A stretch of 58,259 bases of DNA, the filler included, from Jimgerdemannia flammicorona (lineage: Eukaryota): assembly GCA_003990765.1 (NCBI GenBank). It is 3 parts of 3 records of this genome, joined end to end, with 100 filler letters (N's around TTAATTAATTAA, not from the genome) between each part and the next. Parts side by side here need not be neighbours in the genome. Positions count along the whole stretch, not along the records: positions 38,911 to 58,259 come from RBNJ01001959.1; 2 more parts are not named here. One strand, given 5' to 3'. The notes under the pieces were generated by a model, which saw nothing but the letters and a program-made list of their open reading frames with translations, was not told the DNA's origin and did no database searches. Positions within the stretch are counted from its first letter, which is position 1. Each line of letters begins with the position of its first letter. The translations under genes were made by a program, and so were the position numbers. This document shows, one piece after another, positions 11,750-56,076 of this stretch.

Positions 11750-14700
11750 CTCTTTACCAAAGGACCACCCAACCACCCACTATCTAAACCCTGCCACTAC
11801 TCTTCTTACAAATACAATTCACTAGTTTCCTATAGCCTCTCCCACTTGATCTCCATCCTCTCCACCAACCATTCAAAATATCCAATACCAACTATTCCCA
11901 ATATACTACCTTAGCCCCAACCTCAACCCACCAGCCCTCTTCAAAGACATGAAGCCAATAACTAGCCATTCCTACCCAAATCACCAGGACCCACCCCAAA
12001 GTCAGCCTTTCATTCCCAATCCCACCCACTAACCTTTGCCAAAATTCCCCCCATCTCTCTCCTTCCCCCTCCACCAGAGGCTACAAACTCAATTTAACCA
12101 TAATATTGTATCAAAACTTCCCCAAAACTTCACACTCCCCTAGCCAATGTTCAGGCATTTGTACCACTCTCCCCTCCTGACCAATGTCTATACATTCCTT
12201 ATACTCTAATATACTATCTGCCACCAAGTACTCTGACTGATAGTTTAGCATCATATTCTGCCTAAGGAATCTCCACTAAATTATCCAAAACTTGGGAGGA
12301 ATCCATCACATTGTCCTCTTGCTTCAAGGCCAAATCTCATTCCAATTCCACTCCTTACTAATTCCCACCCTTTGTTATGCTTCAGGTCGTATATCTCCTC
12401 CAAGCTCCTGTATACATTCCATTTCATTACTAAGCTGAAAATCTTCCACCAATGAACCTCCCAGTAGTAACCTGTCCCAATACTACATCTGCAGTCCCCA
12501 GTCCTTCTCTCCCTCCACACTCTGCCACTGAAGTCTAATTCTCCTTGCACTATCTACCACTCTCTATCAAAAACCTTTATACCACATCCTCTTACTCCCA
12601 TCTATGGCCACCATTGTAAGCAGGTCATCTGTTGCTCTATAAGGGGAATACTGAACTTTCCACAACCTCTGCATGAGTGGTACCCACTCCTGGCCCCTCA
12701 ACTTACTTATGCTCTTCAGCCACCATATATATAGGCAATGAAGGTACTTGGTAAAGTCCACCAAACCCAGCCTGCCCCTGTCAACAGACAGAGTGAGAAC
12801 CTTCCAGCCTATCTGACTTTACTGCTCAGCCCAGATCCATGATCTTGTTATCTTCAGAAGTTACCTGACCATCTATACCAGAAAGTCCAAATAGTACTCC
12901 ATATATCACAACTTTGGTAGCCAATATACTTTCAGCACTATCACTCTTCCTACCAAGGATATATACTGACTACTCTATCTTAAGAGAACATTCTCCCATG
13001 CTAGTAGCTATTGTTCCCACCATATATAGGACAGGAGGGACCCATATACTGAAAAGAAGATTTCTAAGTATCTGACCAGTTCTCTTGCTAGAACCACTGT
13101 CTCAATCACATTACCACCAACTATTCTGTCACCTAGCACCAGAGTCTCACATTTGTACCAGTTGAGTTTAGCACCTGAGCCCCTCTCATATCATTCCACA
13201 GTACTCCTTAATTCCTCCATATCCTTTAATGAACCCAGGCTAACCACTATGTCATCTACAAAAGCCCCACCTTCCAGTTAATCTCCAAAATGTCCAACCC
13301 CCCTATTTAATGACAGATTCTATCCAATAGGGACTCTAAAGAAAGGATATAAAGGATGGGTGACAAAGGGTCCCCTTGTGGCACTCCTTGACCTAGTAGA
13401 AAGATCTCACCCCTGTATCTATTCACTACTAATGCCACTTGACTGTTTTCCAAAAGACTGATATATAACCTTCTGAACTCTGGGAGAATACCTACATACT
13501 TCAGCACTCCCTCTAGCCAGACTCTCCTTATCCTATTATATGCCTTTTCCTGATTCAGAAACACTAACTGACCATCCACTCCAGCTACACAAGCTCCTTC
13601 AATTACCCCATAGACTCAGGTAGTTCCATCTCAGATTAACCACCTATAAACAAATCCTCTCTACTCTACTCCTAGTATCTGTTGTGCAATCTCCTATAGC
13701 CTAGTTACTAAGATCTTTGTCACCAGCTTATAGTCTATGTTTAGGAGCATAATCAGCTACCAGTTCTTCTAATCTTCCCTTCTCTCCTTATCCTTATAGA
13801 GTAAGGAGACCAGCCCTAGATGCTGGCCCCCAATCTAAGTTCTAGATCAAAGAATCTCATCTTTTTTTTTTTTTTTTTAATGAACTCAATGTCCCACAGA
13901 TTTTTATTAGAAGAAAACCTAGACTATATAGGTCAAAACCCTCCCCCACCACCCATCAAGCACTGCCTTCCCATTAACCTAGGCTAGCTATTGTCCAGCA
14001 GCTCAATCATATCAGGCACAGCAGGGCCTATATTGGCCCACACCTCATTCTGTATACTATGCTCTCCCTACCACCAGAGGAAACTCAGCCATATACTAAT
14101 GACCAAAAGTATATACCTGAGATCCCAACATATACAATACTATGTCTGAGCTAAATAGAAGAGCCTCTGCTACCCCAAAGAGAATGACAGACAAAGAAAA
14201 ACTCTTATCAAAGTATATCACAGTGGGTAGGGCCTGGTTCTCCCAGTCAAGATGAGTAAAGAACTTATATATGAGGCAGAAAGAGACTCCCAATATCCCA
14301 CTACTCAAGCCTGTGGGCCTTGATCACATTGCTATATCAGCTCCTAGTTCTAGTTGTGTATAGTCAAGATGTCTAAAATAAGTAGTCTCAGGCCCTCTAA
14401 TTCCTCTCAATAACCAGGGCTTAATCCACTGAATCACTAAAAGAAGCCAAGAGTGATACCTACTATCTAACCACTCTATACTAATCAAAAGGCCCCACCG
14501 AAGCAGTACCTGCCCCAGCCCCAATGACTGTCCCCAGTCTAGCACTCTACTAGTTCACTGTTATCACCCTTCTTCCTATCTGTAATGGCCATCTCCCCTC
14601 CCATCCCAATAATATCCAAAAAACAGTCACCTATACTAGAACTATACTTGCCAGGAAGCTCACCAAAGCCAGAGAGCCCCACTATAGATACTAAGGACCT

Positions 14701-19355: not shown

Positions 19356-19455
19356 NNNNNNNNNNNNNNNNNNNNNNNNNNNNNNNNNNNNNNNNNNNNT
19401 TAATTAATTAANNNNNNNNNNNNNNNNNNNNNNNNNNNNNNNNNNNNNNNNNNNN
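19356..19455. other. Artificial contig linker (N44-TTAATTAATTAA-N44)
   Basis: Six-frame stop linker, exactly 100 nt, repeated identically at 38811-38910. Confidence 0.98.
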
Positions 19456-38810: not shown

Positions 38811-38910
38811 NNNNNNNNNNNNNNNNNNNNNNNNNNNNNNNNNNNNNNNNNNNNTTAATTAATTAANNNNNNNNNNNNNNNNNNNNNNNNNNNNNNNNNN
38901 NNNNNNNNNN
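38811..38910. other. Artificial contig linker
   Basis: N44-TTAATTAATTAA-N44. Confidence 0.98.
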
Positions 38911-40697
38911 ACTTCATCTTTGTCACTTTTTTTTGTAGTCTCTTAGACTCCTTCCTTTATTAATATACCTATCTATTCAATATAAATACATTGAGCCCAC
39001 CCCTATCTGATCCCCCTAGGGGGCCCTCCTCCCCCCACCCCTTTATAATTAAAGATCACTAGATCATTAACCATCACAACCTGCCCATAACTCTGTTTAC
39101 AGATTCCTTCTACTAGATGGCAACAATGCCCATCCTGAGGACTCCAACCCATCCACCACTCTGTCAATAAATCTCCCATCAACCCCTCTCATCTTAACAA
39201 CTTCTCTTGTAGATCCATCTGTTGCCCCTCCTTAAAAACAAAGAGCTAATGTCCAGCCAGCCCTACCTATATAGCTAAAACCCACCCTACAGTGAGTCAT
39301 TCATTACCCACACCTCCCACCAACCTAGTTCTTTAATCTTTCCATCAACCTCTCTCCCCATCTAATCTTCTCTTGACTCCCAACAATTTACCTACTGCTA
39401 ACCAAAAGTTCCCCAGAACCTCACACTCTCCCAGCTAATATTCTGGCATCTGTACAAATCCTCCAACTTGTCCAACATTGTAATACTTCTCACAATCCAG
39501 TTGCTCACTATCTACCAGATGCCTAGCATGGAAATTCAACATGATATTCCTCCATAGCATCTGCCACCATACTACCCAGAACTTAAGAGAAAGCCACCTT
39601 CTTACCTTAGCACTCTATGACCAGACTCCTGCCCAGTCCCACTCCTCACCAATCCCCACTGCTTGCCAACTATTAGGCCAAATATCCTAATCCAGCCCCC
39701 TCTGACACTCTACTCCATCACCAATATTGAACTCAATAAGTGGAGTGCCCCTCAATAGCAGTCTGTCTCATCTCCATATCACTGATCCCCACAGTATCTC
39801 TCCTTTATTGCTATATCAGTATAAGCCAATATGATAAGCTCCATCTACTACCCTCTATAAGAAGTCTTTATATCTTAACCAATGGCTCTCACCCAGACCC
39901 ACCAGTGATAGCAAGTCTCCTGAGGACTCTCTTGGAGAGAATCTCATCTCCCACACCTTCTGCATCAGTGGCACCCATCTTCCTCTCTACAGTTCAACAG
40001 CTCACTTCAGCCACCAAGCTCTCAGATAGTGCAGCTTCTTAGAAAGATCTACCAGTCCTAGCTCCTCTCTAACTATAGGTATGGAAAGGATATCCCAACT
40101 GATCTGAGACTGTCTCCTAGCTCAAATCCAATCTCTAGTCAGCTTCATCAGTCTCTTCACTACCCAAGCTGAGAAGTCTAAGTGATATATAATATACCAC
40201 AGCTTAGGGAATCAGTAGACATTCAGAATTGATACCCAGCCTGCTAGGGAGATGTGGTGACCTCTCCAACTTCTAAGAGCCTCCTCCAGATGGTTACCCT
40301 CCTCTCCCACTATACCTGTGGTAAGACAGATCTATATACTGAGAGGAAGATACCCAGGTACCGCACTGCCTCTTCTGTCAGGACAATTATTATAATGATA
40401 TCTCCTCTTACTAGTCTATTCTCCAACACCATTGTCTCATACTTATGCCAGTCGAGTTTCACTCCAGAGTATGTCTTGTACTATTCCACTATCTTCTTAA
40501 GTACCTCAACATCTGTTACTGATCTAAGTTTAACCACTATATTATCTGCAAAGGCCCTCACCTTCCATACCACTATAGATAGAGAGTTCTGCTATCTTCT
40601 GGCAAATTCTATCCATCAGAGGCTCCAATGAAAGAGTATATAAAATAAGAGACAGTGGATCTCCCTCTCCCCAAGAGAAATATCAGACCTCGGTGAC
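38911..40697 (+). mobile_element. CpG-depleted repeat remnant, probably a non-LTR retrotransposon fragment
   Basis: CxxC...H-C-like stretch (PHCLFCQD...QHHC) near 40360-40435. 39078-39195 is homologous to the reverse of 58120-58230. Confidence 0.35.
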
Positions 40698-40824
40698 TGT
40701 AATAGAATGAATGAGTGAATAGATGAGATGTGATGAGTGATCATGTGACTCAGCAATGACATCATCATACAATTGAGCATGATATATGGGGCATGCTACA
40801 ACAAAACCAGACAAAATGAACATT

Positions 40825-41830
40825 TTACATCACTCAAGTATTAGGCTCTCATTTAGCCAGTAACCTTTTAATGATTCAATATTCACCATATAAAATAATT
40901 GCCATAAGCAAGCCAAAAGTATAACCTAATGCTCTCTGCTTTCATACTTCTCTTCTTCCTCCTTCTTGTTTGATATTCTGATTCATTTTATATTCCTGAG
41001 TAGCTTTAGTAAAATCTTCATCTTTGAGATCACTAACACTAGTTTCTAAGTGATAGATATTAGGTTTTTGTAGTTTTCTATTAACTTTGTAATTAGGTAA
41101 AATATAAATCTTATCATTTTTGTTAATATGTTTATTTGTTTGCTCAATTATAGATTTTTTGTCATCAATAAAAATATCAAAGTCAGGACAAAGTATGTTT
41201 ATCTTTTCTTAATAATCAGGATACCACTTACTTTCCTCATTTTGTTTGAGTTCAGTTAATTCAAATCTGTTTTGGTCAAACTTACCAAATGTTTTAAATT
41301 TTTTTTTTGTATTTTTCCTCATTGTCTAATTTATCTTTTAGAATGCCTACTTTGTCCTCTGATTAGGAGAATGAACTTATAATTAGTAAGTCACTAATAA
41401 AATCCTCTTTAAGAGCCAAAAGTAAATCCTCTGCAATTGTAGTAAAAAGAACTTTGAATCTTTCTTCAACTCTATAAACATCCATAAATTTACTTCAGCC
41501 AATATCAGGATTATTTTTTATGGTTGTTCTAACCTTTTCAAGTTCTTTGATAGTTTCTCTTTGTTTTTCATCATCAAAATCAAGTGAGATTAAAATATCT
41601 TTTACTTTTCCTCCACTACTAGTAGAAGGCTCTATAATAGCATCTTCTCAGAATATTTTAAAAAATAAATCAAAAGGAATAGTAGTTTTTGAAAATCTAT
41701 GAATTATTGCTGGTTTTAATAGTTGTAAACAATCATCTCAATTGACAATGATTTTCACCTTTCTCTCTTTAAGTTTGACTTGTTCTTTGATGAAAGAATG
41801 GAGGTGATTGATTTTGTTATAATTATCCAT
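40825..41830 (-). pseudogene. Intronless HAD-like phosphatase/nucleotidase with C-terminal TM segment, Mollicutes-like (UGA=Trp?)
   Basis: MDNYNKINHL...KIIVN[TGA]DDCLQ (HAD motif I-like)...DFDIFIDDK (motif IV)...LGYTFGLLMAIILYG. About 335 codons, AT-rich, with one extra A in a homopolymer. Confidence 0.7.
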
Positions 41831-41844
41831 ACTAATAATATAAT

Positions 41845-43599
41845 TTATTTATTGATAGTATTGATTGGGCTTGGACAAGTGATATCTTTGAATTCATCCT
41901 AGGCAAAGGAGTGAATATTGTGATAAAGGTATTTCTGGTATTTCAATTCTATAGGAGGAGGCACTAGCACCGAAAATGACAAGGCTTTGATTTCTTTTGA
42001 AGCCTTGGGTTTACTACTTTTTAATAGTTTAAATTCTTAGAATAGACTATTTGTGACTTCCTGAGCTTTGATCACCTCAGGCTGAGAACAAGTAAAAAGG
42101 AAATGTTGAAACTTTTGTATACTAGGCAGCTTCTTGAAGTATATTTCTAAACTACTCAGAATGTCAAAGTATTGAAAACCTTTGCTACCTTTGTAATGCC
42201 AAGGTTTATTTAGTCCAGCAATGCTAGACTTTTTTACTACATCCATAACATGATCTATACAATCCACAGTCATTTTGCAATAAAGCCTTTTAATTAGGCC
42301 AAAACTACCATCACACTTAAATTTAGTATGGCCCAGAACTATGAAGTTCAATTCAATACTTTCATAGTACCTGCAAATTACCAAGTATATGTAAAACTAA
42401 AGAGTAGTATTATTTTTGTTTTACCCACCTACATTATCGCAGGTAATCTTCAAATGCTTTTCACTTCTATTCAATTGCTTAATTCTATTGAAGACTAGGC
42501 TAAGCGTACCATTTGGACCCTTCTGGAGAAGTTCATTCTCATCCAGTATGTAATTAATTTATTTATACACTGCTTCATCCTAGATCTCAAACAATTGTAC
42601 TTTGCAAGTACTAAGATAATATACCTTGCTAATTTGTTGATCGGAATGAAGTACATAGATATTTTGTGCTCAGTCATAACTGTAATAGGTAACTGCATCA
42701 GTGTTGCAGTAGGGTATCTTACCTTCGACCACTGAATAATTCTGCTCAATGAGTTTTTGGTGTTCTTCAGCCAACTTGGTATTTTTGTTATAATAATTTC
42801 ACTCCAACTTGGCCTTGGCTAAATGTTCTTTATACCTCTTTAATAAGTCTTGGGCCTCTTCCTATTTATGAGCTTTGAATTGCAAGTCATTCCACAAATG
42901 TTGACAGGTATCATATAAATTGGTTTGAGGACTCATGACTTGAATGTATGAAGTTAGTTGATGCCACAATTTGTAGAATGCATCATACTTCAGGATACGC
43001 AATTTACTATCTTCTTCCAGACCAGCTAGAAAGTTATGGTGAACAGACTTATAGCTCAATTCTGCAGATAAAAAGATAATTGATTGGGTGACTCAATTAA
43101 TATTTCTAACTGGGCTAGGTAATCCATGAACTTCAGCATAATTTACCAAAAAATTCTTAATGGTGATAGCAATATTAATATTGATGACCATCTTGGTTTT
43201 TCACTGTGGCATTCTCTTTACATTACCATGTACTCATGATAGAAGACCATTCTTGAGCAAGTGATTTCAGATATTTTCAAAATAATTGCAGCCAATGCCA
43301 AGCATATTGAGATAAGTTTTTTGGCAAATAGGGGTATTACGATTCCAGCAGTAGATAGTTCTCTTATTGACATGAGTCTTGTTCTTGAGACATTGACTAG
43401 TATTGATCACTCCTCCATCCATGGAACTGAGTTGGGCCATTAAAAAGATGTCTTGTTCTGACTTAGAGAGAGCTTGAAAGGCTTCCCACAATTCGGCAAA
43501 CTCTTCTCTAGGCACTTTGTCGGAGCAACTGCAATTGCATCCCACTTCTAAAAATTGGAGCACTTTCTGGTATTCGGTTATAATTGTATCATTTACCAT
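41845..43599 (-). pseudogene. Sola1-like DDD transposase (~585 codons), decayed
   Basis: PICQKTYL, YDTCQ (CxxC), KGPNGTLS, ITCDNVGG*NKNN and LGHTKFKCDGSFGLIK are Sola1-type motifs. Confidence 0.82.
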
Positions 43600-43739
43600 A
43601 TATATATTTATGTTCAGTTTGTCTGGTTTTTTAAAATTTCCTAATGACCATAATTAAATCTACTATGGAGCCCAAACTACAGCACTTTATGCTCTATTAC
43701 GCCAACATGACTCTCTTTTCGCGTCAGGCGTCCACCCAA

Positions 43740-46095
43740 CTATTCTTCAACACTATTCTTGCGCACTTTTTTGACTGGCGTTTCTGGTACCGTCCCGAAA
43801 CATCCGCCTACTTCAGATAGTTGATTTTCATTCCTCTTGCGATGCGCTCGCGAATGTGCCAGAGCTATGTTGTTCACATGTTCACGCATGATCTTGATGG
43901 TCGCCTAAAATTAAATGAATATACCAATGAGAATAAGGAACAAGACAGCGATAAAGCAATGATTGCGGTAGTTTATATAGTACCATGAGGTCCGACATAG
44001 CGACGAAAAACTCCTCCAAGCACGGAAGCGTTGTGACTGTGTTTGGAAGCCTAGATTGGCGAAGTCTTCCGAAACGCATTATATTGGTTGCTTTACAGTC
44101 CATGGCGTATATCTCATGAACCCAACCTTAGTATTGAGGAAGGTAAGTCGTTAAGACATGATTTTAAAATTGATCACCGAGTTCGCCATAATCGCATATT
44201 TACCCCACGACTGCATGCCAATAACGAACGTCTTATGCAGATCGTCGTCTTGTGCCTTCGAATTGTATATAAAGAACTGGCAGATGATGTCACGAAGTGT
44301 CACCGATAAATCGATACGATCCTCAAAGATCTTCCTTCGATGGGTTTCGGGAAGCCCACCACTACGTAGGCCGATCAGAGGCTCAAAGTTGTTGATACTC
44401 TTTTTCATTGTTCCCCGCAAATCGCACTTCTGCCCGACACGAGCACGGAGGAGGATGGACCGACCAACATTGCGACGTTCGGCTGATGCCCAGCATGCGA
44501 TCTCACCACTAACGAATTGTGAAGAGGAAGAGTGAATATAGTGAAAAAACGAGCCTATCTTCTGTGTTTATACATACACGTCAATCTTTAGTTCCTCTGG
44601 GTCAAGGCACCGCTTTACCAGCATGTTTGTGAATGCGTTGTCAAAAGCGGCTTCGGAGACCGGAAGGTCAACGAAACGTAGGTTCTCAGCACTGGATGAT
44701 GATATGGTAGATACTATGAAGTGATATGAAGCGAAATATTAACTGATGATTGCCTGTGATGCTGCACTCACTATGTTACAATGGCGCGTCTAATGGTCGC
44801 GATATCTTGATCCTTGGCATTGAGGTTGACACCATCCTTGTTAATTGACTCCGGAAATATTCGTTCGATAGCCGTGACGACGTCATCGTCCCCCTGGGCC
44901 TTGACAACCTGAAGGCGTGCGGATTGATATCGTAAGAACAAATCTATTTCTGTCAAGGCAAACCTATCGTCACTTGCCTTCTCGAGCTCGTCAAAGAAAC
45001 GCAGCACGCCGTCTGAGATATCCGACTTCACCAACTTCACTTCTTGCTCGAAGCTCGCAACCATCTCCGCCCAGTCGTCCTCTGAAAAGATGCATTTGGT
45101 CTCAAAATGATTGCCTGTTAAATCCAGGATATTCCAATACACCGGGCTGCAAAAAAAAAAAAAATTCAATAAATCAATCATTACCAGAAATGCCACGAAG
45201 GTGTATGCAAATGAAGACTAACTTCAGAAATTTCTCCGCATTCGGAATTGTCTTCGCGTACGCCGCTAGAACATCTCCAACATTTGTTCCACTCGACAAG
45301 ATCCATGATCTCTGACGACATGATGTCTGCCGGCCTTCGACGCACTCTATATATTTGTTGCAAATCTTGTCGATCTTGGCGTTGTCGACATCATCATCGA
45401 CAATCTTGCTATCTTTCTTGCTAAAGTTGTCGTTGCCGTCATCGTTGTTCTTGTCCTTACCGCTGTCACTAGTGTCTTTCTCCAGTACAACTAACTCCGC
45501 ATTGTTCATAGTATCGTTGACGTTGTTACTGGTATGCCCACCCTCAAGAACAGACTTCAAGCGTTTTCCCACAGACTGCGAAATAGAACAAAATAAACTG
45601 CAAGCTCAACCGAACCATAGATATGTCATGAATGAGATAACAATACTTGCTGTTATATATTTTTTAGAGGTCAGTTCCATTGTAGCCGATTTTTCCGCAA
45701 CAATGCTTAATTCAACGTCAGTGCTATACAATTTCTACGAAATGCACTTGCATTAATATTCGTTGATAATCAGAACATTCCACAAGAAACGACCTTCTGT
45801 GACTTACCTCAGCATATTTTAGATCTTGAGTCTTAAGAAATTCTTTGACCTCTGGCCGATCTAGCGTTGACGTTAAGCTTTCACAGATTTTTAGAGCTTT
45901 CCTTTGCACTGATTTGGTGAATGTGTTGCTCGTGGATCTAATCTGCATATGTTGCAAAAACACGTCACAGATTTCTAGAAAATTTGCACTTGTGTAGCTA
46001 ATATTTTCTGACAGATATTGCATAACTCCCAGCAGACTCCAATTGGTATATGGAGTAGCTTCCAGGTACTTCAGCGTATAAACTTCAAAGGTCAT
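43740..46095 (-). CDS. Apparently intact multi-exon (~9) gene with a C-terminal PD-(D/E)xK/REase-like domain (Mucoromycota Crinkler-like effector family)
   Basis: ORF pieces are joined by GT/GC-AG introns with no internal stop found: MTFEVYTLKYLE...SWILSSGTNV...SEAAF...GEIACWASAERRN...GQKCDL...LIGLRSGGLP...EDRIDL...RD...VIGMQ...SRLP, ending TAG at 43740. CpG content is normal. Confidence 0.75.
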
Positions 46096-46181
46096 TCTGT
46101 GGAAAGAAAGAAAGAAAATAAATAAATATTAGAGCAGGCTATAAACAAGAGAAAAATAGACAACTGAAAAAAACTTCGTTT

Positions 46182-46527
46182 AACGTAATACTTCTGGTAG
46201 AGAGAGCGGAAGGGTAGGCTACTAAGAGGAAGCCGTCCAAAAGGGCGAACCGCGTCAAAGAGGGGAGCTCCCGCAACTCTCTACCAAACATCAGCCGCAG
46301 GGGTTGCTAAGCACACTGAGCACTTAGCTCGGCACATACGGGTGTAGGAAGTATTACGTTCAGTATGCTAGACACAAAGTCAAAGGAGTAGGCTACTAAG
46401 AGGAGGCCCGTTCAAAAGGACGAACCGCGTCAAAGAGGGTATGCATTTGGCCTTGCGCTAAACAGCAGCCGCAGGGGTCGCGAAGCATCAGGTGCTAAGC
46501 TCGGCCGTACACGGGTGCCGGATACTG
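46182..46527. ncRNA. Two head-to-tail structured units (179 and 167 nt); candidate novel ncRNA/ribozyme
   Basis: Invariant 17- and 19-nt cores. Enclosing stems differ in sequence but stay paired, and hairpin changes are compensatory. Confidence 0.6.
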
Positions 46528-46802
46528 TGGATCGCAGGAATTATAAATTGTCAACTTCCCTGAGTATACCTGAAGTTTGGTTTTCTGGGTGATAACGGTT
46601 CGAACAATCTACAGGTAACAACGCACATATTAGAACAACGAACGTGCGAATGGAAGACAAACTGGCAGCACTATTAATACCACTCACGATATCGACTGGC
46701 AACAATGAACGCGAAAAAGAGAAGCGTACGCAACGCGTCAAAATTTTCAAGGCAACGTCACCCTCATACCAAGCCACACATCAGTTCACTTTTTTTCCTC
46801 AG

Positions 46803-47268
46803 TGTGATGGTAGTATTGGTCTGATTAAAAGGCCACAGCGATGCTAGACCTTTTTACCACATCTGCGACGTGATCTATACAGTCCACCGTGGTTTTACAA
46901 TAAATAAAGCTCGGCATTATAATGGTAGCAAAGGTTTTCAATACTTTGACATTCTGAGTAGTTTAGAAATATACTTCAAGAAGCTGTCTGGTATGCAAAA
47001 GTTTCAACATTTCCTTTTTACTTGTTCTCAGCCTGGGGTGATCAAAGCCCAGGAAGTCGCAAATGGTCCATTCTAAGAATTCAAACTATTAAAAAGTAGT
47101 AAACCCAAGGCTTCAAAAGAAATCAAAGCCTTGTCATTTTTGGTGTAAGTGCCTCTTTCTATAGAATTGAAACATCAGGAATACCTTTATCACAATATTA
47201 GCCCCTTTGTCTGAGACGAATTTAAAGATATCACTTGTCCAAGCCCAATCAATACTGTCAATAAATAA
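46803..47268 (+). pseudogene. 3' third of the Sola1-like transposase (right arm)
   Basis: CDGSIGLIKR...GFQYFDILSSLEIYFKKLSGMQKFQHFLF; inverted copy of 41845-42315. Confidence 0.85.
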
Positions 47269-47282
47269 ATTATATTATTAGT

Positions 47283-48276
47283 ATAGATAATTATAATAAA
47301 ATCAATTACCTCCATTCTTTCATCAAAGAACAAGTCAAACTTAAAGAGAGAAAGATGAAAATTATTGTCAATTGAGATAATTGTTTACAACCATTAAAAC
47401 CAGCAATAATTTATAGATTTTCAAAAACTACTATTTCTTTTGATTTATTTTTTAAAATATTCCGAGAAGATGCTATTATAGAGCTTTCTACTAGTAGTAG
47501 AGGAAAAGTAAAAGATATTTTAATCTTACTTAATTTTAATGATGAAAAACAAAGAGAAACTATTAAAGAACTAGACAACCATAAAAAATGATCCTGATAT
47601 TGGCTGAAGTAAATTTATGGATGTTTATAGAGTTGAAGAAAGATTTAAAGTTCCTTTTACTACAATTGTAGAGAATTTACTTTTGACTCTTAAAGAGGAT
47701 TTGATTAGTGACTTACTAATTATAAGTTCATTCTCCTGATCAGAGGACAAAGTAGGCATTCTAAAAGATAAATTAAACAATGAGAGAAAATACAAAAAAA
47801 AATTTAAAACATTTGGTAAGTTTGACTAAAGTAGATTTAAATTAACTGAACTTAAACAAAATGAGGAAGGTAAGTGGTATCCTGATTGTTAAGAAAGGAT
47901 AAACATACTTTGTCCTGACTTTGATATTTTTATTGATGACAAAAAATCTATAATTGAGTAAACAAATAAACATATTAACAAAAATGATAAGATTTACATT
48001 TTACCTAATTACAAAGTCAATAAAAAACTACAAAAATCTAATATCTATCACTTAGAAATCAGTGTTAGCAATCTCAAAGATGAAGATTTTACTAAAGCTG
48101 CTCAGGAATATAAAATGAATCAGAATATCAAACAAGGAGGAGGAAGAAGAGAAGTGTGAAAGCAGAGAGCATTAGGCTATACTTTTGGCTTACTTATGGT
48201 AATTATTTTATATGGTGGGTATTGAATCATTAAAAGGTTACAGGCTAAATGAGAGCCTAATACTTGAGTGATGTAA
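47283..48276 (+). pseudogene. Second copy of the HAD-like cargo gene (right arm)
   Basis: Inverted copy of 40825-41830. ATG is mutated to ATA, with a small deletion near 47570. Confidence 0.75.
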
Positions 48277-50419
48277 AATATTCACTTTAGCTGGTTTTGT
48301 TGCAGCACACCCCGTATGATATTATAAATGACAAATATAATGAACAATATGAATAATGCAAATAAATGATATCTAGCTTACCTCTAGTAATCAGTATCAC
48401 AGTATGGCACTATATCAACCAATAATGTAGTATAGCACTATAGTAACCAGCAATGCAATATAGCACTGTAGTAATTAGTACTATAGTAACTAGTACTACA
48501 GCAATACTACTCATTGCTTAGTAATAGATGTCATGATTACAAACCTTACTATAGTTACCAAATTAGTCACTTATTCTTAGTCAGAAATCATAAACCAACT
48601 TATATAAATACCCCCAGTTTCTATTCAAAATAAAGCAGTTTTAGTTTAGTCCTTGATATAAGAATCAAGTTTCCCTTCCATATACACATTCTCCTGAGTC
48701 TTAGTAATGATATCTAAGTGACTTTAGTGTTTCTGATTAAACTCCAGAAGTCTAGCTAACTTCTGCCAGAACTGAGACTAGTATATAAATTCCCAAAGAC
48801 TTAAGTAAACCCATTGAATCTGAATTCCAAGGCAAATTCAGTATGTGTATAGCAAAGAACAAGATCTCTGAAAGATAAGATAAAAGAGAAAGACCTTTGA
48901 AAGATAAGGCACTACCACTACAATTACTGTTAAGTGAGCACTTCCTCAAACTGAAGGCTTCTTGGTACACATTGTATACTAAGTCTTTAAGTAATAGTCT
49001 TACTTCCCTAATTATCCAAAGGATAAGAAAGGGGTAGAAGTAAGAGTTATTACAACTTGGTAGCAGCTGTTTACCAGTCAAGAAGGCATCAAGAACATAC
49101 TCCTGAGAAGTTGGAACAAGACTAACCTTGGATAGGAGTAACCCTAAAACCAACTGTGGATCTCCAAATCAGAGCCAGAGAAGCCCTTACCATTAGGACC
49201 AAGTGGTACCAGAAAACTACAGATCTAGGGACTAACCAGCTTATAATTGACCAGACTTATAAGGATCTATACCAGGCTTTTAAGACTTACCACCCAGGAC
49301 TTAGGAATATAGTTAGCTACTATAGGTTCTACAAACTTCTCTATAGATATATTGGAACCACTAGGACCCCAGAATCTACTGCTGCAGTCATTCAGAATTT
49401 TCTAGATTATATCTCACCTCTTACTGTAAAAGAAGCAGCTACTGAGTAGATTACCTCTGACAGATATCATCATACTCCTATCAAGACCTCTCTCTACTAT
49501 AGGCTAGTTGTATACTATGCCTCTACCATAACTAGGTATGAGAATGAGCAAGCAGGCCACCCATCTCCTACTGCTGAACAAGAAGCAGACCCATCTTATT
49601 AACTAGAAACTGATATTCTCTTTGAAGGACCTAGTCAGTATGAGGATGCACTATCTCATCAGGGAAGGGAGTCAGATGAAGACTCTACAGATTACTAGTC
49701 TGATAATAGCCAACAAGGAACAGCAGGCCTAGGAATTTACTAAAGAACTATAGGTCAAGAAGATAGGACCCCAGAACCAACTCAGCCACCTATCAGAGGT
49801 TTGGTTTACTGTCTCTCACAGGACTCTTTAATCAGATATTTGGGAATCAAGTAACTCCAAGTCATACAGCACCACAACCTCATCAGACAGAACAATCTTC
49901 AGGAGAATCTATCCCTACAGGACCACAATCAATAGTCAACACAATGGTAGATGTCAATATTGCAGCACTAGTGCTCTGAACAGATGGAGTTGATTCAGAT
50001 TCAATTCAATTCAAATTCATCATGTGATGGATTCGAATCAACTCAGATTGGTCTCATGATCTGATCTAGATTGATCTAGATTGATCCAGATTGATCTATC
50101 TGGATTGATCCATCTGGATTGATCTGGATTGGTCTATTTGGATTGGTCCATCTAGATTGGTCCATCCAGATTGATTCATCCGAATTGAAATCTTTGGTGA
50201 TATTATCCTTTCTTTTGTTCATTTCACTCTTGTTTTTTTTTTCCTGCTGTACTTTGGTAACATCACTCTTTTCTTTTGCTCTCTCTCTTCTTTTGTTCTT
50301 TTCTTTGTTCTTTTTCTTTGTTCTTTTTCTTTGTTCTTTTCTACCACATCATGAGTAAACAAAACAGCAGCCCTTAATTTGTATGTTGGTCCAGTCTACT
50401 CATTTTTCACCCTGCAATG

Positions 50420-53401: not shown

Positions 53402-56076
53402 TTAGCAGCCTGAGCCCCACCAAGACTTCAGACACATATATGCCCGGATTGTCTCAGCATTCAGTGCACACCTCTTTGGGGCAATGAGGTCCACCCCACT
53501 TGAGAACACCTGCTCGATGGGAGTGCTAGAGGCAGGAATCACCAGGTAGTCCCAAGTCATACCATATAGGCTGGAGAAGTCCATTTGATGCAGCTACATA
53601 CCCTGATAGGTAGAGTAGTAGTTAGATTGATGGGTTAAATTGACTCAATGCCCACCTGACAATGCCCATCTGAGAACCCACCTTCCACCAGTTGAGCACC
53701 TCCGCACCCTCCAGCAGGACCACGTAGTCACTGGTGAGGTAAATGGTAAGTTTGTCTATTGATGGCAGCTCTTTCACTGATGGCTCCCTCTTCCTCTTTC
53801 TGCTAAAGTAAATGTGGGACAGGAGAGATCCCTCGGCATATTCATCCAAAGTTTAGCTGGAACCTTGCAATAGTGCATAGTTTTTCCGGTATACTTCGAT
53901 TATGGCCTGCTTGGTTCTCTCAATGAAGTGCTGCTCTCAGCCCTGATCTTTATGGTATTGTAGCTTTAAGTGTGGGTCCAGCACTGTTTGAAGAAAGAAG
54001 AGTGAGTTTTTGCAGAGTTTCCTCTGTTTTGGAAGGGGCAATGGTCACATGCCAACATTGATATACCTGTACTGATTGAGTATACAGCAGTATCTGTTTG
54101 GGAGTAGTACTTCCTAAGCTTGCTTAGAGTAACCTCTACAGCATCTCTCTGATCTGGGCTTAACCATAAATCACTGCAATCCTCCAGCCTATCCTCGAGC
54201 TTGTCCTCTAGCTGGTCAATCAGAAGGTTGTATACTGGTATCATAGAGCTTATTGTCAGAGTCGTTTGTTTGACTATATCCTTCATACAATTATCGAAAC
54301 ACTGGCAGTTATATATGGTGAGGTGTTGCATTGTGCAGAGGCAGACAAAATGAGTGTAGAGCCAGAGCAACCACCACTTACTTCCAAAACTCTGACAACA
54401 TTCCTAAGTACATCTCACTTGCTTTTACCTAGAGACTCAGCCCATATTTCCTTGTCGGCAGCCATCATTGAATCTATTGGCTTTTTTTTTTTTTTTTTTT
54501 TTTTTTAAATAAATCTTCCATCATCCGAAACAGTTGCTTCAGCCAACCGAAGAAAAAAAGAATGCATACTACAGCAAACTCCAGTGCATGCTGGATCATT
54601 GCAAATATTGAGTTCCAATATATACAGACATCCAATATAAGCTCTTTTGGGGCTAAACTGATTGCCCTACACTGCACAGCGAATTTGTCTCATCATTGTG
54701 GGGATGATCGGACTGACACAATTAGTTTGCATAGCTTGGAAATTATACTCAGGGCCCCTCCTTTCTCGGATATTTTGTCTATGTGTGTAAGATAGTCCTG
54801 AATAGCAAGGTTCAGTATGTGGGCCTAGTATCACATATGGTAGCTTTCTGTACCAAAGGCCACATTTTCCTGTTTGAGGCTGACCGCTAAAACTTGGAAA
54901 AATGTTGAGTTGTTTGTGGTATTGTCTATCATAATGGCCAAAATCTGTACTTGAAATATTCAGTTGGCGAATTATGCGAAAATAAATAACCAATAAAATC
55001 TGTTTTGTTTAAGGACCTCCCTCAAAATACTGACCTGACAGCAAGTCCTCCTTTTTTTACCTTGGTTGTGATCCCAAGCTCCTGGATACAACTAATAAAA
55101 GTATCTGCAATGTTATCTCCAAAATGAGGGCCAGCAAGTTTGACGAAGTCAAGGGTGAGAGATTTAAGCTGCCAATCAAGGTCAATCCAATGACTGGTAA
55201 TGCCCAGAAATGAAATTGTATTGAGAGATGTCCATGTGTTGATTATAAATGAAATTTTGCCTGCCAAATTCTGCTTATTGAATGTAAGGTTAAATTGATG
55301 AGCTCTTTTATATAATTCAGCTTGCAAAGGTCATAGTGCTGCTCTTATTTTATCTGAAGTGTCTGGCAGAGATTATTGTGCTCCTTCCTATAGGCCTCCA
55401 GGACATCTTTGCAAATAGTATCAGTACTTGGCAAATATAAATCATGCTTGAGGAGACCAAAGATACTATGTAACTGATCACTCTCAATAGTTGTGAATGG
55501 CTGATCTGTGCATACAATCCAGCGAATGAGCCGATTTCAAAATTCTGCCAAAGAGTATAGCTAAATATTTTTGATTAAATGGCATTGTTGATACAGAAAT
55601 GGTTGGGCAATCAGATAAACATACCCACCACAGCTTGGATGTCGATTTTATTTGTCTCTGTGTTCTTTTTGATTTTGTCAGAGTGCTTGTCTTTTATGTG
55701 TTGATTCATGTTTAAGGTCATACCACCAAGCATTTTGAACTTCTGGCTGGTGCAGTTTATGGGGGTAGATGAAACAATATCATGTGTATGTCAAACAAGT
55801 CAATAGGTGCATCTTAATTTTTTACCTGCAATAATTACAAAAAACATCATCTCCTATCTTAGTATAATGTTGCCAGATTTTGGAGTGAGAATTGTATGGA
55901 AGGTGTGGAACTATCAGGGATGTTTGACTTGAAGCATCATCAGTACTGTAAACTGTTGAAGACTGATCTGTCGACATGTGTGTTTGCATGTTTGCATGTG
56001 TATGTATGTACATGTGTATGTATTGTATATACATGTGTGTGTATTGTGTTGTAGAGGTGTCCAGCATATGAGTCAT
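53402..56076 (-). pseudogene. hAT transposase (BED finger, DDE core, dimerisation domain), with introns
   Basis: KIWQHYTKIGDDVFCNYC (BED); ISFIINTWTS...FLGITSHWID; CLAHILNLA; LDVCIYWNS; DYLVIPASSTPIEQVFSSG...KRCALNAETIRAYMCLKSW. Confidence 0.9.

Follow-up and report, generated by a model that had tools for sequence, protein, structure and literature searches.

In the genome of the fungus Jimgerdemannia flammicorona (NCBI GenBank assembly GCA_003990765.1), a 7.5-kb unit is bounded by two 3' ends of one DNA transposon, placed in inverted orientation, and encloses a complete host-type gene. The unit lies in a stretch of 58,259 nucleotides, hereafter the window, and its arms belong to a transposon family whose transposase carries the Pfam domain DUF7869 and which we label Sola1-like. 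The structure is genuine and out of the ordinary: a chimeric unit that is old and no longer mobile. Composite transposition is a plausible origin for it, and we put the probability that the 7.5-kb unit was inserted as one piece at about 0.4. Three features make up its body:

40788-43725, minus strand: left element, a near full-length, dead DUF7869-type (Sola1-like) DNA transposon without its far 5' region, recognized by Pfam, tblastn and blastn.
43607-46589, minus strand: cargo transcribed region, with the coding sequence at 46095-43743, the stop codon TAG at 43742-43740, nine exons and 585 amino acids.
46801-48313, plus strand: right arm, an inverted copy of the element's last ~1.5 kb, beginning at about transposase residue 430 and containing a micro-inversion at 46836-46904.

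The window is made up of three contigs, joined artificially by N44-TTAATTAATTAA-N44 linkers at 19356-19455 and 38811-38910; nothing can be read across these joins, and the composite unit lies within the third contig (19 kb). Comparisons drew on two sequencing runs treated as RNA-derived on account of their spliced contigs (X1 and X2), on a soil metagenome (X3) and on a metagenome scan with an alignment of eight transposase members, which matched 360 stretches and confirmed 215 relatives. The best 80 of these 215 are the related loci referred to throughout (L001-L080).

As the sequence-only reading had proposed, an inverted copy of the element's 3' end closes the unit. Positions 40784-42212 and the inverted stretch 48317-46901 are 92.7% identical over 1429 nt, and the match extends to 42317/46801, giving arms at 40784-42317 and 46801-48317. 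Differences between the arms over 40784-42212 amount to 84 transitions and 8 transversions, which, going by the sequence, are the product of C-to-T decay after a common origin. Within the right arm, 46836-46904 runs in direct orientation relative to 42216-42284, a micro-inversion of 69 nt. Every relative matching both pieces (L038, L044, L057, L068, L069 and L074) keeps the arrangement of the left element, so the inversion is private to the right arm.

Between the arms lie ~3.07 kb of CpG-normal DNA, and here too the earlier description held up: two element ends in inverted orientation bracket DNA that is not part of the element. The ratio of observed to expected CpG is ~0 across most of the window, whose repeats have thus lost their CpGs, and ~1 in a few islands. 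It reaches 1.11 in the cargo (43733-46800), the sole CpG-normal island of the third contig, compared with 0.03-0.24 in the arms and flanks: 0.17 in the left element, 0.24 in the right arm overall (0.11 in its outer part, 0.84 in its inner 150 nt) and 0.04 and 0.03 in the sequences flanking the unit.

The identity of the arms was established through the transposase. An open reading frame (ORF) at 42037-42396 on the minus strand matched DUF7869 (PF25273) with an E value of 3.4e-8, and a full-length family member of 589 residues, P0024, matched the same domain at E 5.5e-17; it was the sole Pfam match of the transposase in either sequence. When searched by tblastn against the left element, P0024 aligned over residues 3-589 in one frame (43602-41848) with 72.5% identity and 13 in-frame stops, and the right arm spans only about residues 430-589, with three stops. 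Both transposase copies are dead. Relatives are plentiful elsewhere: blastn of the left element matched at least 40 metagenome loci, and a word-based protein search accepted 47 of 78 candidates at E <= 1e-3, 41 of them with PF25273, from soil metagenomes, Ambispora, Diversispora and Geosiphon. L001 contains an uninterrupted 589-codon match at 99%, and D390 and D432 are invariant in the transposase alignment (A1). An AlphaFold model of P0024 from alignment A3 had a predicted local distance difference test (pLDDT) score of 40.6, too poor for a fold search, and the term 'DUF7869' did not occur in the literature searched. The 58-kb window holds no other copy of this subfamily, and the depth of the arms in X3 roughly equals that of the cargo; the subfamily looks about single-copy.

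Both arms stop precisely where the relatives stop, next to short sequences of the following kind:

40788-40832, minus strand: conserved 3' terminal sequence of the family in the left arm, 89-95% identical to the 3' ends of L003, L021 and L062.
40784-40787, no strand: ATAT, candidate target-site copy beside the left outer terminus, read directly and found in 10 of 13 relatives.
48314-48317, no strand: GTAT beside the right outer terminus, read directly and matching the left ATAT at 3 of 4 positions.
40779-40785 and 48316-48322, no strand: 7-mer direct repeat ATGATAT, containing TGATA and offset by 2 nt from each terminus.

Fifteen ends among the related loci carry the conserved 3' sequence ...AATGTTCACTTTGTCTGGTTTTGTTGCAGC.., stopping at (C/T)CCC, and 13 remain distinct once two duplicates are set aside; two further 3' ends (L032 and L053) break off before CCCC. 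All 13 distinct soil-metagenome relatives end in ...GCAGCAYGCCCC, followed by A-W-W/G-T (ATAT in 10, AAAT in two, AAGT in one) and then by unrelated sequence. The window arms stop at this same terminus, GGGG/CCCC at 40788 and 48313, and the adjoining 4-mers read outward are ATAT and GTAT. Judged against these relatives, the two outer ends are genuine 3' termini of the DUF7869-type family, and we infer that a transposase made each outer junction, because each terminus abuts the family's usual ATAT-type 4-mer. Contigs of X1 and X2 follow the right-arm terminus and the first 4-7 nt of its flank (to 48320 and 48323), beyond which they continue with unrelated sequence; alleles, further insertions, or products of splicing or chimera formation are candidate explanations.

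The pattern beside CCCC is symmetric over 4 nt, with A at position 1 and T at position 4, and the target site is therefore likely 4 nt long rather than 5; if 5-mers are taken instead, beginning one letter further on, just 6 of 14 have a final A. The duplicated TGATA reported earlier is thus only partly upheld: it is present on both sides (40780-40784 and 48317-48321) within the 7-mer ATGATAT, and is probably not the target-site duplication (TSD) of the family, given the 4-nt symmetry. As a direct repeat flanking the unit, ATGATAT has a chance probability of ~1e-3 by rough estimate, even allowing for the ATAT preference.

The inner boundary of the left element differs from its first description, which had placed the element's end at 43630 and taken 43611-43630 for the inner part of a native 5' terminal inverted repeat (TIR). 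Two features are concerned:

43611-43630, minus strand: 20-nt motif inside the element that repeats the 3' subterminal motif in inverted form, lying a short way upstream of the transposase ATG (43599-43597).
43653-43725, plus strand: remnant of the small accessory ORF (MEPK...) of the family, running antisense to the transposase, an orientation shared with L042, with blastn matches to L042, L001, L037, L061, L056, L021 and L062.

Reverse-complemented, 40804-40823 agrees with 43611-43630 in 19 of 20 letters. A motif of ~20-24 nt occurs in the 3' end, at 13 nt from the terminus, and again, in inverted form, directly ahead of the transposase ATG. Lacking the outer GGGGC... part, this motif precedes the transposase start in L001, L003, L038, L042, L044 and L057. 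It is a normal internal motif of intact relatives, in the same place, and was rejected as a truncated TIR remnant. Homology to relatives continues past 43630 to ~43698-43725, and L001, L003, L044 and L057 share a further ~330-370 nt upstream, including a small ORF starting MEPK(D/N)Y; the left element is accordingly 5'-truncated ~95 nt further out than 43630 and not within a TIR. Only the first ~60 nt of the accessory ORF are left in the window (ATG at 43666), and homology fades at ~43725. Across subfamilies the position and orientation of this ORF, which has its own TATA-like upstream sequence, vary: it lies upstream and sense in L001, L003, L044 and L057, upstream and antisense in L042 and the window, and downstream and antisense in L021, L037, L056, L061 and L062. 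As to the family's 5' end, L021-type ends begin at a conserved TAAAA... with unrelated flanks. The candidate 'TATAGGG...CCCTATATAAAA' was discarded as a 5' terminus, being shared together with upstream sequence by L003, L026 and L079 and internal in other elements.

The cargo is a complete, expressed and conserved fungal gene. Contigs of X1 and X2 span 43607-46096 with eight introns removed and hence derive from spliced RNA; all eight introns read CT..AC on the plus strand or can be shifted to CT..AC. The X1 contig (1892 nt) shows 0 differences from the window, the X2 contig measures 1853 nt, and further RNA-derived contigs cover 46067-46221 and 46192-46589. The encoded protein is 99.8% and 99.4% identical to two hypothetical proteins of J. 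flammicorona and 75% identical to a paralogue there. Its Glomeromycota counterparts share 42-67% identity, with C-termini that align end to end, and a profile search returned 297 cluster representatives at E <= 1e-3, the named members including the chytrids Geranomyces and Borealophlyctis. No Pfam match above cut-off was obtained for the cargo exons, orthologues or distant relatives, the ESM Atlas search found unnamed Mucoromycota clusters only, and the AlphaFold model of the orthologue P0001 (alignment A2) reached a pLDDT of 43.2, too poor for a fold search. An Ambispora relative is fused to an NPR3-like part, and no NPR3-like sequence is present in the window. An effector-like character, as first suggested, does not agree with a protein of 585 residues that has no hydrophobic N-terminus or signal peptide, judged by eye, and is conserved from chytrids to Glomeromycota; this is an ordinary housekeeping-type gene and not an effector.

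Transposon and gene are closely interlocked at their common border. The cargo stop codon and the transposon boundary are ~15 nt apart, transposon sequence makes up ~119 nt of the 133-nt 3' untranslated region (UTR), and the place where the cargo RNA contigs end falls within the transposon's truncated 5' side. On the other side, the inner end of the right arm adjoins the cargo promoter side and has stayed CpG-rich. No cargo paralogue was found in the window or in the 80 related loci, and each RNA run yielded one cargo contig among the matches listed, a result that agrees with a single-copy gene having been cut and pasted. The transcribed part upstream of the start codon includes a repeated pair:

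46210-46313 and 46383-46487, no strand: two CpG-rich units of ~105 nt, 80.6% alike, transcribed and covered by RNA-derived contigs, with no Rfam or transfer RNA (tRNA) match.

We favor a reading in which the block would have formed around the gene at another locus, transposase acting in trans would have paired its two 3' ends, and the block would have been cut and pasted as one piece, as a macrotransposon, into low-complexity repeat DNA, where C-to-T decay would afterwards have killed the arms. The 7-mer repeat fits this course of events, as does one 151-nt soil-metagenome contig that, among the matches listed, joins 40730 to 48375 with a shorter side of 21 nt; its depth of 2.5 equals the single-copy level of cargo reads in the same run (2-2.6). 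The flanks themselves are ATGA-rich, low-complexity, CpG-dead repeats with high depth in X3. A continuity test of the two flanks with Tandem Repeats Finder and k-mers counted 14 shared 6-mers against a control mean of 6.9, and 4.5% of controls reached at least that number. A bolder version, namely that the block is a eukaryotic composite transposon of the Sola superfamily in which like (3') ends were paired, a single-copy gene was relocated into repeats and the transposon came to supply its 3' processing signals, is tentative and somewhat doubtful.

Several observations weigh against movement as one piece. The joining contig skips 7644 nt, compared with the 7526-7537 nt expected, about 110 nt too much, and has just 21 nt on one side. 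Neither a second copy nor a donor locus nor a clean empty site was found in the window, the 80 related loci or the flank-pattern scan, in which a 27-nt pattern from the right flank, written in International Union of Pure and Applied Chemistry (IUPAC) code, gave 0 matches in metagenome contigs. The left-flank repeat (39838-40694) recurs at 63% identity in the first contig, at 12547-13416, but the match stops at ~40694 and gives way to sequence that does not resemble the right flank. Near the junction, the soil run has a depth of ~6 on the left versus ~160 on the right. The 80 related loci contain no outward-facing inverted 3' arms. Since nearly every insertion of the family has ATAT next to it, the ATAT and GTAT flanks are no proof of a single event, and a match at three of four positions is equally expected from two separate insertions given that target preference. 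With a 4-bp TSD, the 7-mer repeat would require a tandem ATGATAT-ATGATAT in the target. Finally, the 5' and 3' ends of the family are very different, so that the pairing of two 3' ends is an assumption.

Several expectations of the sequence-only reading found no confirmation. The same arm-cargo-arm unit with other flanks was absent from the window and the 80 related loci, and uninterrupted copies of the flanks were found neither by the 27-mer scan nor in the 63% copy, which has no right-flank continuation. That the flanks are one long terminal repeat (LTR) joining across the unit likewise finds no support: the window contains no second copy of the junction-proximal flanks and no LTR pair, none of the 27 flank ORFs reached the Pfam cut-off, with no retroelement domain among them, and the flanks contain no tRNA. 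The left-flank repeat family is old and diverged. A route for spreading effector-like genes is not supported either, since the unit looks single-copy and the gene is not effector-like.

The strongest rival, which we consider unlikely, holds that two elements of the same family inserted separately around a resident gene, their 5' ends inward, and later lost their inner ends by deletion, with no movement of the block. ATAT lies beside 10 of 13 relatives, so that matching 4-mers are expected from independent events, and cut-and-paste elements commonly re-insert locally. A single-copy, complete cargo gene agrees with this course, as do the distant copy of the left-flank repeat, which lacks a continuation into right-flank-like sequence, and the unequal flank depth in the soil run. 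However, at least four events would be needed, all of them sparing the gene, in a subfamily that is about single-copy, its arms having about the depth of the cargo in X3 and no other copy occurring in 58 kb. The 7-mer direct repeat and the join from 40730 to 48375 would also be left unexplained.

Less probable again is a single insertion downstream of the gene, followed by faulty transposition or template-switch repair that copied the 3' 1.5 kb, inverted, to an ATAT-type site upstream while the gene stayed in place. The right arm has features in favor of it: it is cut off inside the transposase gene at about residue 430, its outer end is the precise terminus, and its unique 69-nt micro-inversion, with small junction losses and 35 nt from the break, is typical of complex repair. 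Linked Ac ends in maize give similar composite insertions, as the relevant portions of PMC9910405 and PMC4270019 relate. Yet the micro-inversion could equally date from formation of the composite elsewhere, no specific pathway to exactly this product could be derived, and the 7-mer flank repeat and the joining contig again go unexplained.

An assembly artefact, with the inverted arm or a junction produced from mis-joined repeat copies in a short-contig assembly, is very improbable: the assembly is fragmented (the window being three contigs) and, among the matches listed, none bridges the left outer junction at ~40788 or the right inner junction at 46801, but the arms differ at 7% of positions and so are no collapse, two of the four junctions are bridged independently (~43725 by an RNA-derived X1 contig with 0 differences, 48313/48314 by a contig of the X3 soil metagenome), and the contig of the second RNA run also begins inside the transposon part, at 43626.

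A few observations concern related loci and the surroundings of the unit. L018 (6328-7401) and L024 (5087-6255) each have two family 3' ends arranged tail-to-tail with a spacer of ~320 nt. The two loci share their 3' side and differ in their 5' side, a pattern pointing to chimerism of the metagenome contigs or to recombinant haplotypes. Beyond the unit, the third contig consists of CpG-depleted repeat DNA. An ORF at 55022-55330 on the minus strand has hAT-transposase-like sequence (HWIDLDW...), judged by eye only, and a short tandem or hairpin-like repeat of the GATTGATC type occupies 50065-50138. There, Rfam returned sub-threshold matches to plant microRNA families only (28-32 bits versus gathering scores of 80-95), which are probably due to chance.

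If the unit moved as one piece, fungal cut-and-paste transposons would be able to relocate entire functional genes, promoter included, as maize Ac macrotransposons do, and two like ends would suffice for the DUF7869-type family. Should the reading as a Sola composite be true, no gene-moving macrotransposon would have been described before in Sola elements or in early-diverging fungi. Even without movement, three points hold: a dead transposon provides the greater part of the 3' UTR of a conserved gene, an Endogonales fungus harbors a DUF7869 family with Sola1-type target sites that is abundant in soil metagenomes, and the small accessory ORF of this family differs between subfamilies in position and orientation.

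Among known systems, bacterial composite transposons of the Tn5 and Tn10 type have whole insertion-sequence arms with symmetric ends, inverted, that bracket a cargo. The unit resembles them in that two inverted copies of one element bracket the cargo with outer ends alike, and it differs in that one arm is a 1.5-kb fragment, the other is without its far 5' region and the two ends of the family are unlike. Pack-MULE-type capture (transduplication) usually leaves copied pieces of genes flanked by a 5' TIR on one side and a 3' TIR on the other. Here as there, a non-autonomous DNA transposon has host sequence between its ends; in contrast, the gene carried here is entire, has introns and is expressed, and a donor copy of it was found neither in the window nor in the 80 related loci. 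Reference transposases of Sola1 are reportedly of the DDD type.

The Sola1-like label, already given in the sequence-only reading, fits the A-W-W-T 4-mers beside the termini of the family. According to the part of PMC3845634 that deals with Sola1, its hallmark is an AWWT/AWDT 4-bp TSD, a pattern that the four nucleotides beside our termini fit, and its ORF encodes 630 residues, compared with ~590 here. The TIR of insect Sola1 miniature inverted-repeat transposable elements (GGACCG...) does not resemble the 3' end of the present family. In the PMC3985635 supplement, 'Sola' occurred only within solani, solanacearum and Solanum in the 10 of 57 matches listed. Sola1 is present in Rhizophagus, and the 2017 Mucoromycotina sample is without Sola1-3, in the portion of PMC5751038 on these lineages; if the family is Sola1, its presence in Endogonales would extend the range beyond that sample.

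The closest parallel is found in maize. In the pertinent sections of PMC9910405, Ac macrotransposons are blocks of host DNA enclosed by a 5' and a 3' terminus of Ac that can excise and insert again in one unit, with a TSD, and alternative transposition by linked Ac ends gives rise to composite insertions (also PMC4270019). The Jimgerdemannia unit is set apart by its two 3' termini, its DUF7869/Sola1-like family and its host, an Endogonales fungus, and Ac movement has been shown genetically whereas the case here is one of sequence. In the same sections of PMC9910405, the maize units arise by aberrant events at linked ends. The present unit can be likened to them in its presumed origin by such events, in having host DNA between two transposon ends and in being non-autonomous.

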